64,000 bases of DNA from Escherichia coli (GTDB taxonomy: Bacteria > Pseudomonadota > Gammaproteobacteria > Enterobacterales > Enterobacteriaceae), in the NCBI RefSeq assembly GCF_046105845.1, contig NZ_CP151004.1; one strand, 5' to 3'. The translations under genes were made by a program, and so were the position numbers. Below are positions 48,478 through 51,874 of the stretch, piece after piece. Position 1 is the first letter of the stretch, and the number at the start of each line of letters is the position of its first letter. A model generated the notes under the pieces. That model saw only the letters and a list, made by a program, of their open reading frames with translations, made no database searches and had not been told where the DNA came from.

Positions 48478-48510
48478 CAAAACCCCGGCCATGCGCCGGG
48501 GTTTCTTTTT
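48478..48510. terminator. Bidirectional terminator between obgE and dacB
   Basis: ccccggc/gccgggg stem flanked by A-run and T-run between convergent stops. Confidence 0.8.
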
Positions 48511-48512
48511 GA

Positions 48513-49946
48513 CTAATTGTTCTGATAAATATCTTTGTACAAACGGCTTTCAAAACGCACTAACGGAATACGGCGATTACGCTGATCCGCGGGTTCTACT
48601 GCATAGCCGGAAAGATATTGCACAAACGCCATTCGTTGCCCGCTCGCCGTGGTAATGAATCCCGCCAGGTTATATACCCCCTGCAACGAGCCGGTTTTCG
48701 CTGAGACTTTGCCATCCACGCCCGCCTGATGCAGACCTGCACGGTACTGCAAAGAGCCGTCATAGCCCGCCAGCGGCAGCATAGAGATAAAGTTAAGTTC
48801 ATTGTCGTGTTGGGCTATGTATTGCAGCACCTGCATCATGGTGGCGGGGGCAATCAGGTTATGCCGCGAAAGCCCTGAACCATCGGCAATAATGGTGTTA
48901 CCAATATCGACACCGGCTTGCTGGCGCAGGATCTGACGCACGGCGTCCGACCCGGCCCGCCATGTTCCAGGCACATTGAAGCGCGCATGGCCTATCATGC
49001 GGAAAACCGTATCGGCAATCATGTTGTCCGACTTTTTCAGCATAATCTTAAGCAGATCGTGCAGCGGGGCCGACTGTTTACTGGCAACTACCGTTCCAGG
49101 TTCGTTAACCTGCGTCTGACGCAGCAGTGTTCCGCTCCAGGTGATACCTGCCTGTTTTAACTCATCTTTCAGAATTGCTCCGGCATAGCTGGCTCCATCC
49201 TGCACGGCAAAAGCCAACGGGAGCGGCTCAGAACGTTGTGGCAGGCATCCGGTCAGCGTAAAGCGGTTCAGGTCGCCTGGCACCACATCCAGCTCGCAAT
49301 ATTGCGCTTCGGCAGAACCACGGGGGAGGGTGCGTACCTGGCTGAACATCGTAACGGGGTAATAAGATGCCACGCGTATAAAAGCCATATCACCAGGTTT
49401 TGGGGCACTGTAGAGCGAGACGGAGAAACAGTTGCGGTCAACTATGGCGGCAGCAGGCGGAGCGCTAAAGCATTGTGTCATGTCATTCCATGGCCAGCCG
49501 GGGGCTTTATCGTGGCTGGCGAAAATGGAGGTATCTATCAACACATTGCCATCGATTTGGTTGACGCCAGATTTTTTCAAAGTCGCGACCATATTGCGAA
49601 TATCCTGACGTTTTAACGTCGGATCGGCACCAAATCGCGCCACTAAGTCACCCTTAAGTACGCCGTTTTCCACATTACCTTTGGTTTCAAGCGTCGTGGT
49701 AAAACGAAAATCGGGGCCGAGTTGAATCAACGCCGCCAGTGCAGTAATCACTTTCTGCGTACTGGCGGGCAGCGCCATCTGCTGACTGTGGTAATCAATA
49801 GCGGGGGCCGACGCGCCGACTTTTTGCACCATCAGGGCAAGGTTGGCACCAGCGGGGAGTTGAGTAATGTACTCATCAACATTTGCGGCCTGAACACTGA
49901 ACGCTATACAGCTGGTCAATCCGATGATAAATCTGGAAAATCGCAT
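48513..49946 (-). CDS. dacB: D-alanyl-D-alanine carboxypeptidase/endopeptidase PBP4
   Basis: 477-aa ORF with signal peptide and STQK active-site motif. Confidence 0.94.
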   Translation of the reverse strand: MRFSRFIIGLTSCIAFSVQAANVDEYITQLPAGANLALMVQKVGASAPAIDYHSQQMALPASTQKVITALAALIQLGPDFRFTTTLETKGNVENGVLKGDLVARFGADPTLKRQDIRNMVATLKKSGVNQIDGNVLIDTSIFASHDKAPGWPWNDMTQCFSAPPAAAIVDRNCFSVSLYSAPKPGDMAFIRVASYYPVTMFSQVRTLPRGSAEAQYCELDVVPGDLNRFTLTGCLPQRSEPLPLAFAVQDGASYAGAILKDELKQAGITWSGTLLRQTQVNEPGTVVASKQSAPLHDLLKIMLKKSDNMIADTVFRMIGHARFNVPGTWRAGSDAVRQILRQQAGVDIGNTIIADGSGLSRHNLIAPATMMQVLQYIAQHDNELNFISMLPLAGYDGSLQYRAGLHQAGVDGKVSAKTGSLQGVYNLAGFITTASGQRMAFVQYLSGYAVEPADQRNRRIPLVRFESRLYKDIYQNN

Positions 49947-50065
49947 AATCTCGCGCTAACAACCTGGAATCGAGCCGTCATACTACGGCGCAACGCCCTA
50001 TAAAGTAAACGATGACCCTTCGGGAACTTCAGGGTAAAATGACTATCAAAATGTGAATTGTAGCT

Positions 50066-50099
50066 GACCTGGGACTTGTACCCGGGTCGGTATTTTTTT
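50066..50099 (+). promoter_or_regulatory. greA leader intrinsic terminator (GraL-type attenuator)
   Basis: gacctggg/cccgggtc hairpin followed by T7 run about 95 nt upstream of greA start; matches the known leader terminator that yields the GraL RNA. Confidence 0.55.
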
Positions 50100-50193
50100 G
50101 CTTCTGGTCCCGGTGAGGAGTTATGCCGGGCAGGCCGAACAGCCGGGGTGGGTGAAGACTTGCCCCATCAGGAATATTCAAGAGGTATAACAA

Positions 50194-50670
<477 letters not shown>

Positions 50671-50712
50671 GAATTACCCAATACTCAAGATGTTGATGTA
50701 TTGTAAAGAAAG

Positions 50713-50738
50713 GAAAAAGGCCGCTATGCGGCCTTTTA
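50713..50738. terminator. Terminator between greA and yhbY
   Basis: ggccgc/gcggcc stem with flanking A-run and T-run between convergent genes. Confidence 0.75.
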
Positions 50739-50825
50739 TCAACGAACAGAGCGTGGCATTTTGCTCTCCTGCCTGCGGAAAACCCCTCGTTTTACACAGC
50801 AAATGTGTGTAACTTTAGGATAATC

Positions 50826-51119
50826 TTAGCGTGGCAGCGAGATTTTACGTTCTTTAGTTGGGCGATAAAGCACCAGCGTTTTACCGATGACCTGTACATT
50901 ACAGGCGCCGGTTTCGCGCACGATAGCTTCCACGATCAAGGTTTTAGTTTCGCGATCTTCGGTGGCGATTTTCACCTTGATGAGTTCATGGTGCTCTAAC
51001 GCTTGTTCAATCTCGGCCAGCACCCCTTCGGTCAAACCATTACTGCCAAGCAGAACAACTGGCTTGAGCGGATGTGCCAGACCTTTCAGGTGCTGTTTTT
51101 GTTTAGTACTCAGATTCAT
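50826..51119 (-). CDS. yhbY: CRS1/YhbY RNA-binding protein
   Basis: 97-aa ORF MNLSTKQKQHLKGLAHPLKPVV... Confidence 0.92.
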   Translation of the reverse strand: MNLSTKQKQHLKGLAHPLKPVVLLGSNGLTEGVLAEIEQALEHHELIKVKIATEDRETKTLIVEAIVRETGACNVQVIGKTLVLYRPTKERKISLPR

Positions 51120-51244
51120 CGTATTTTTTGCTTACGTTGGGATTGAAAACGGGTCATTCTACCGCCATCTCCCATATATCACCAAATAGGCGCGTAAAAA
51201 TTTACGCAATTGGTTACGATGAGTTATCCCCATGGGAAAGTTAA

Positions 51245-51874
51245 ATGACAGGTAAGAAGCGTTCTGCCAGCTCCAGCCGCTGGCTTCAGGAACACTTTAG
51301 CGATAAATATGTTCAACAGGCACAGAAAAAGGGGTTACGTTCCCGTGCCTGGTTTAAACTTGATGAAATACAGCAAAGTGACAAACTCTTTAAACCGGGA
51401 ATGACGGTTGTCGACCTTGGTGCTGCCCCGGGTGGTTGGTCACAATATGTGGTCACCCAAATTGGCGGCAAAGGCCGCATCATCGCTTGCGATCTTTTAC
51501 CTATGGATCCTATCGTTGGTGTGGACTTTCTTCAGGGCGATTTTCGTGATGAACTGGTGATGAAAGCACTGCTGGAGCGCGTTGGCGACAGCAAAGTCCA
51601 GGTTGTCATGTCCGATATGGCACCAAACATGAGCGGAACACCGGCGGTGGATATCCCCCGTGCCATGTATCTGGTGGAACTGGCGCTAGAAATGTGTCGT
51701 GATGTATTAGCGCCAGGTGGCAGTTTTGTAGTGAAGGTGTTCCAGGGCGAAGGTTTCGATGAGTATCTAAGGGAAATTCGCTCCCTGTTTACGAAGGTCA
51801 AAGTTCGTAAGCCGGACTCTTCTCGTGCACGTTCGCGGGAAGTGTATATTGTAGCGACCGGGCGTAAACCCTAA
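51245..51874 (+). CDS. rlmE: 23S rRNA 2'-O-ribose U2552 methyltransferase
   Basis: 209-aa ORF with SAM-binding motif [11 protein letters not shown]. Confidence 0.95.

Follow-up and report, generated by a model that had tools for sequence, protein, structure and literature searches.

The hairpin and U-rich tail at 50063-50103 of the window, the 64,000-nucleotide stretch of Escherichia coli DNA analysed here, are very probably the GraL terminator, a Rho-independent terminator in the greA leader, and this confidence extends to the model of termination and GreA autoregulation outlined below. The element is already known and was characterised in K-12 MG1655 (PMC2836576, PMC6829880), and nothing that we found speaks against its identity. 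For the identical sequence, published work has established that the promoters are active, that transcripts terminate here and are released, that short RNAs occur in vivo, and that the outcome in vivo depends on GreA. The additions made here are small, namely, the mapping of coordinates, covariation across 40 species, the lack of an antiterminator in the real transcript, the promoter content of the Rfam model RF01769, and the range of the U7 tail.

Transcription from two overlapping strong promoters, P1 (A50045) and P2 (A50056), runs into the terminator, whose G+C-rich 11-bp hairpin and UAU7GCUU tail release about two-thirds of the RNA polymerases and let about one-third go on to greA mRNA. Release is unusually imprecise, with 3' ends spread over ~10 nt, and yields two families of GraL small RNA that also act in trans. 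In vivo, catalytically active GreA raises termination, with GraL going up and read-through going down, which amounts to negative autoregulation; this requires the GraL sequence (+1 to +48) in cis and does not rely on the promoter. The effect of GreA on termination would require an accessory factor or an indirect route, as the purified system is unresponsive.

Locus and correspondence to K-12

The list of open reading frames (ORFs) places dacB at 48513-49946 (minus strand), greA at 50194-50670 (plus strand, 158 amino acids), yhbY at 50826-51119 (minus strand), rlmE at 51245-51874 (plus strand), and ftsH from 51965 onward (plus strand); obgE is also present upstream in this gene order. RefSeq annotates the greA product on identical DNA as transcription elongation factor GreA. 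Both the ORFs and the RefSeq annotation put the element immediately ahead of greA, in the same orientation as this gene and divergent from dacB. A 351-nt query (49900-50250) matched 5425 of 5426 complete E. coli genomes, with at least 99% identity in 5423 of them, and the features annotated under these matches were greA and dacB.

The sequence of 49947-50103, which begins at the dacB start codon and runs through the whole U-rich tail, is base-for-base that of K-12 MG1655 (NC_000913.3). The 247-nt dacB-greA intergenic region differs from MG1655 at only two positions, 50115 (G for A) and 50166 (C for T), both of which lie downstream of the terminator, where the leader is poorly conserved. Compared with the GraL of K-12 (Potrykus et al., 2010; Dylewski et al., 2019), the stem, the tail, the two starts 11 bp apart, and the AUG at +150 are the same; there is no difference inside the element, and the two leader substitutions fall in the region dispensable for autoregulation. 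The sequence-only reading had named GraL, a name borne out by this identity and by a score of 127.5 bits against RF01769. In the RefSeq annotation of MG1655, the dacB-greA interval shows the flanking coding genes only and no GraL or leader feature.

Beyond the other end of greA, where this gene converges with yhbY, a perfect hairpin of 10 bp (AAAAGGCCGC-TAT-GCGGCCTTTT) was noted at 50715-50737, with an A run on one side and a T run on the other. Its sequence suggests a bidirectional intrinsic terminator for both genes; it was called on the minus strand by the terminator scan, and its Rfam matches, to the terminator portions of STnc420 and STnc540, were weak and below threshold.

Hairpin, tail and conservation among Enterobacterales

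On the plus strand, the terminator scan called a stem at 50063-50091 with 11 pairs (7 G-C, 3 G-U, and 1 A-U), a 7-nt loop, and the tail ATTTTTTTGC. The DNA of 50063-50103 reads GCTGACCTGGG-ACTTGTA-CCCGGGTCGGT-A-TTTTTTT-GCTT. Stem I (GCUGACCUGGG, 50063-50073, +19 to +29) and the loop ACUUGUA (50074-50080) were given by both the scan and the RNA fold, and stem II (CCCGGGUCGGU, 50081-50091, +37 to +47) by the scan, the fold, and its covariation with stem I. The tail A-U7-G-C-U-U (50092-50103, +48 to +59), where transcripts are released, has the sequence of the published AU7GCU2, with the T7 run at 50093-50099. In K-12 numbering, the hairpin was placed at +19 to +48 (PMC6829880), and an 11-bp stem followed by AU7GCU2 was described for GraL (PMC2836576); the published hairpin maps to 50063-50092 and the published tail end, +59, to 50103. 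The hairpin begins 18 nt downstream of the P1 start, A50045, and the terminator lies 91 nt upstream of the greA ATG at 50194.

The earlier claim of a hairpin and T7 run between a likely greA promoter and its start codon was thus correct, with the hairpin at 50063-50091, the promoters at 50012-50050, and the ATG at 50194. The interval that had been given for it, 50066-50099, took in the inner eight pairs and the T7 run but missed the three outer pairs (50063-50065 with 50089-50091: G-U, C-G, and U-G) and the GCUU that extends the tail to 50103.

The stem is the longest among the 8 terminator-like sites in 48500-51500, a region in which shuffled sequences lead one to expect 3.8 ± 2.0 sites. The RNA of 50045-50100 folds to exactly the 11-bp hairpin, with -19.6 kcal/mol compared to a shuffle mean of -10.2 ± 2.4 (z = -3.87), and none of 200 shuffles was as stable. 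The Rfam family RF01769, "Enterobacteria greA leader," matched 49977-50098 on the plus strand with 127.5 bits (E = 1.2e-24; gathering threshold, 60 bits) over model positions 1-124 of 124, and its last (3') helix is the terminator hairpin.

For the comparison with other species, one genome per species was scanned with the 15-base pattern AAAGTAAACGATGNCC, which belongs to the conserved block that precedes the promoter. At least 120 stretches were found, and those that encode a GreA N-terminus 150-215 nt downstream (at least 40) were used; 80 of the listed stretches were dropped as chance matches in unrelated phyla or on failing the greA filter. The loci compared are therefore biased towards species that keep the upstream block, and the pattern itself does not overlap the terminator. 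They come from Escherichia albertii, Citrobacter, Enterobacter, Kosakonia, Kluyvera, Pluralibacter, Siccibacter, Mangrovibacter, Pantoea, Erwinia, Yersinia, Pectobacterium, Dickeya, Brenneria, Acerihabitans, Photorhabdus, and Plesiomonas.

Among the matches listed, a hairpin followed by a U-rich tail was present at the equivalent place in all 40 greA loci. Covariation was assessed on a MAFFT alignment of 41 sequences (the 40 other species plus E. coli) covering the 62 nt after the equivalent of the P1 start. The E. coli stem pairs were paired in 90.7% of 439 cells of this alignment of listed matches, and 8 of the 11 stem pairs showed compensatory change on both sides (45 cells), with no pair invariant among these sequences. 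Sliding the 3' partner by 1-3 columns reduced pairing to 23-55%. The observed covariation score was reached by none of 500 column shuffles, which ignore the relatedness of the sequences, and for this reason the slid controls are the fairer comparison. A stem that has undergone compensatory changes in 40 other species indicates that the hairpin is more than a product of chance. In accordance, the GraL papers (PMC2836576 / PMC6829880) report for four species that 17 of 18 stem mutations keep the stem structure.

RF01769 was found above threshold upstream of greA in 19 of the 20 loci tested. The weakest scores were obtained in Photorhabdus (73-79 bits) and at a divergent "Klebsiella sp." locus (65 bits), and the search at the Plesiomonas greA locus returned no match to this family. 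In related species, the Rfam rimP leader RF01770 and two tRNA genes were also seen ~7 kb downstream of greA (loci L024, 7572-7672; L075, 8076-8176; L088, 1671-1772; and L092, 181-281). This placement is in line with the conserved greA-ftsH-...-metY-rimP-nusA neighbourhood, and an equivalent rimP leader may lie close to the 3' end of the window.

Promoters, transcripts and the antiterminator question

A consensus scan predicted the sigma-70 promoter P1 at 50012-50040 on the plus strand, with the -35 hexamer ATGACC (50012-50017), a 17-nt spacer, and the -10 hexamer TAAAAT (50035-50040), which together agree with the consensus at 9 of 12 positions. The -10 hexamer is at least 90% conserved in the 41 sequences, among the matches listed. 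The elements predicted for the sigma-E promoter P2 were read off the sequence at 50023-50050 on the plus strand and consist of GGAACTT (50023-50029), a 16-nt spacer, and TCAAA (50046-50050); GGAACT and TCAAA are kept in most of the 41 sequences among the matches listed. The sigma-E consensus, which Rhodius and colleagues are said to have given in 2006, is reportedly GGAACTT-N16-TCAAA. The predicted P2 elements fit this consensus and would be placed correctly for a start at 50056. Experimentally, P1 is a strong, sigma-70-dependent promoter and P2 is sigma-E dependent, with a start 11 bp downstream of that of P1 (PMC2836576).

The P1 start (+1, an A followed by U) was assigned to 50045 on the plus strand, given that the greA AUG is at +150 (PMC6829880, Fig. 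1 legend) and 50194 - 149 = 50045. The P2 start (an A followed by A) corresponds to 50056, 11 bp further and +12 with respect to P1. The dinucleotides that prime transcription in vitro are ApU for P1 and ApA for P2 (PMC2836576); positions 50045-50046 are AT, in agreement with the priming of P1, and positions 50056-50057 are AA. Placed in this way from the published numbering, the P1 and P2 starts would lie 18 and 7 nt upstream of the stem, respectively. Two additional 5' ends, P3 and P4, are doubtful and are considered by the authors of PMC2836576 to be probably post-transcriptional in origin.

Mapping of the published lengths and 3' ends with +1 at 50045 locates the GraL RNA population at 50045-50104 on the plus strand. 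The remainder of the greA 5' leader (50104-50193, plus strand) is found in read-through transcripts only and ends with the Shine-Dalgarno region. Conservation is poor at 50104-50168 and returns at 50169-50193. The stretch of 50104-50193 is G+C rich and contains several minimum-energy hairpins, for example, around 50148-50165; the fold of the whole 149-nt leader has a z-score of only -1.96.

Upstream of P1, two very highly conserved blocks were noticed, CATACTACGG and AAAGTAAACGATG (49979-49988 and 50002-50014), the second of which was fixed by the search pattern whereas the first was not. Read on the minus strand, they contain TTTACT (50009-50004), an 18-nt spacer, and TAGTAT (49985-49980). 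A plausible reading of this arrangement is a sigma-70 promoter for the divergent dacB, ~27-35 nt upstream of the dacB ATG. This candidate has 8 of 12 consensus positions, just below the threshold of the scan. A literature search for a mapped dacB start returned none; it gave only a MarA study in which the upstream region of dacB served as an unbound negative control.

Two structural alternatives bear on what the hairpin is and on what stands in front of it. The probability that it arose by chance, or that it is an element serving the divergent dacB and not greA, is next to nil. A near-palindromic hairpin does exist on the minus strand as well, and ~3.8 terminator-like sites per 3 kb are expected by chance in the region, but the minus-strand hairpin has no T run following it, dacB points away from the site, covariation of the stem extends across genera, and the experiments on the identical sequence show function on the plus strand. 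Covariation, orientation, and published plus-strand function together effectively refute this candidate. Very little probability is also left for a classical attenuator or riboswitch-like leader, in which the terminator would face competition from upstream hairpins (RF01769 consensus; Naville and Gautheret, 2010). Naville and Gautheret (2010) claimed a clear antiterminator in each of the greA and rnk leaders, and the RF01769 consensus draws three helices 5' of the terminator, in a region that is strongly conserved. However, their candidates ran from the end of the upstream gene (or from at most 200 nt) to the terminator, and mapped starts were not used. Positions 1-68 of RF01769 (49977-50044) precede the P1 start at A50045 and are therefore absent from the P1 and P2 transcripts, in which only 18 AU-rich nt stand ahead of the terminator stem. 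The nascent RNA from P1 (+1 to +36) has a folding energy of -0.2 kcal/mol, less stable than 200 of 200 shuffles, and that from P2 (+12 to +36) likewise has -0.2 kcal/mol, with an unpaired centroid and a fold weaker than that of shuffles. Among the matches listed, the upstream helices showed no compensatory change in the 41 sequences and every variant was pair-breaking (the 3' arm of helix 1 being fixed by the search pattern), and the conservation of this region is better explained by the promoter hexamers.

A competing fold was sought in the nascent P1 and P2 RNA up to the loop and in the whole 149-nt leader; none was found, and the terminator hairpin was present in every leader fold. The absence of a competing fold and of upstream covariation indicates that the element is not a terminator/antiterminator switch, an idea that the authors of the 2019 study likewise reject on experimental grounds (PMC6829880). 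The three upstream helices of RF01769 were rejected as RNA structure, as they lack compensatory change and lie upstream of the mapped start. GraL matches RF01769 over its full length, but the first 68 nt of the model precede the mapped P1 start, and over half of it is probably untranscribed promoter DNA, made up of the P1 and P2 hexamers and the conserved block upstream. According to PMC6829880, which cites it as a comparable dual-action case, the Listeria SreA riboswitch is likewise a 5' leader terminator with a short product acting in trans. Unlike riboswitches of the SreA type, GraL has no ligand-binding aptamer and no alternative fold, and its effector strengthens termination.

Termination, autoregulation by GreA and variation of the tail

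Published experiments on the identical sequence document the activity of the terminator. In vivo, the addition of the terminator to a P1P2-lacZ fusion reduced expression from ~750 to ~250 units, equivalent to 66% termination, and ~60% was obtained in vitro (PMC2836576). In a bead-release assay, the short RNAs were freed from immobilised templates (PMC2836576), which indicates that they were terminated and not paused. The GraL RNAs measure 50-60 nt when started at P1 and 40-50 nt when started at P2, and Northern blots revealed clusters near 55 and 45 nt in vivo (PMC2836576); the short leader RNA that had been anticipated from the sequence corresponds to these published blots of 40- to 60-nt RNAs. 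Their 3' ends are ragged over ~10 nt in the purified system as well as in vivo, and this spread is independent of RNase III and RNase E (PMC2836576). The efficiency of termination was constant over growth, and a direct trans target was elusive in 2010 (PMC2836576). Overproduction of GraL altered the expression of more than 100 genes and improved fitness (PMC2836576, PMC6829880), and nudE is cited as the likely trans target in PMC6829880. In the literature searched, no relevant study was found that maps 3' ends, by Term-seq or otherwise, and names GraL.

Regarding autoregulation, a greA-lacZ fusion was derepressed about 3- to 3.5-fold upon deletion of greA (PMC2836576, PMC6829880), and the GraL level was ~4-fold lower without GreA (PMC6829880). 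Autoregulation requires the catalytic residue D41 of GreA; it survives a promoter swap to lacUV5 and needs the GraL sequence in cis (PMC6829880). It was largely lost when +1 to +18 was scrambled or the arms of the hairpin were swapped, and the leader downstream of +59 was dispensable, as seen in the NDS construct, which is cut just past +59 (PMC6829880). In the purified system, GreA changed neither the pattern nor the efficiency of termination, and GreB was also without effect (PMC2836576, PMC6829880). Neither overproduced Nus factors nor sigma-E induction explains the regulation, and the same holds for Hfq, whether lost or overproduced (PMC6829880). From the lack of an effect of GreA in vitro, the authors infer an accessory factor or an indirect route (PMC6829880).

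GreA regulation is a strengthening of termination and not its relief. The regulated read-through that had been read from the sequence holds in vivo, supported by the greA deletion, D41, and the need for GraL in cis, with the qualification that termination is strengthened and that the leader lacks an antiterminator. Both checks proposed at the same time had already been published: the Northern blot was positive, and transcription in vitro was the same whether or not GreA was added (PMC2836576, PMC6829880).

Regulated termination has to be weighed against a constitutive damper, in which a fixed two-thirds of the output of two very strong promoters would be lost, GraL would be a by-product, and the GreA effect would be indirect, proceeding, for example, via the stability of GraL or another GreA-dependent gene and not via control of termination. 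We consider this rather unlikely. Read-through measured with lacZ and the GraL level shift reciprocally with GreA dosage, an effect that persists under the lacUV5 promoter, needs D41, and is lost on GraL scrambling although termination in vitro remains; a simple damper does not sit well with these observations. What speaks in its favour is that termination amounts to ~66% in vivo and ~60% in vitro and is constant over growth, that neither GreA nor GreB has an effect in the purified system, and that there is no alternative RNA fold able to switch the terminator. To this can be added that GraL was measured by steady-state Northern blotting, which cannot separate synthesis from decay.

The tail of the terminator varies among lineages. 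Among the matches listed, the uninterrupted UAU7GCUU tail was seen in Escherichia and Citrobacter only, and in most other genera (Enterobacter, Kosakonia, Kluyvera, Pluralibacter, Siccibacter, and others) an equally good stem is followed by UUUUCUUUUGCUU. In Pantoea and Erwinia, the stem is longer (12-14 bp) and the tails are of the type AUUCUUUUG; in Photorhabdus, the hairpin is weak and the U tract poor. The imprecision of the terminator, and perhaps its sensitivity to GreA, could on the basis of these tails be a recent trait of Escherichia and Citrobacter instead of a general enterobacterial one, an idea that we regard as improbable. Should GreA act, together with a further factor, on polymerases that slip or backtrack along the U7 tract, species with an interrupted tract would terminate precisely and would be devoid of autoregulation. 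If this lineage-specific reading were true, natural tail variants would point to the missing mechanism of GreA action.

A validated leader terminator was in this case named from the letters of the DNA alone, and the locus can serve as a positive control for the sequence-only reading. GreA acts globally on the fidelity of transcription and against arrest, and is a rival of DksA and GreB for the secondary channel of RNA polymerase. Since it competes with these proteins for the channel, its dosage must stay steady, and the greA leader terminator is the device that keeps it so.
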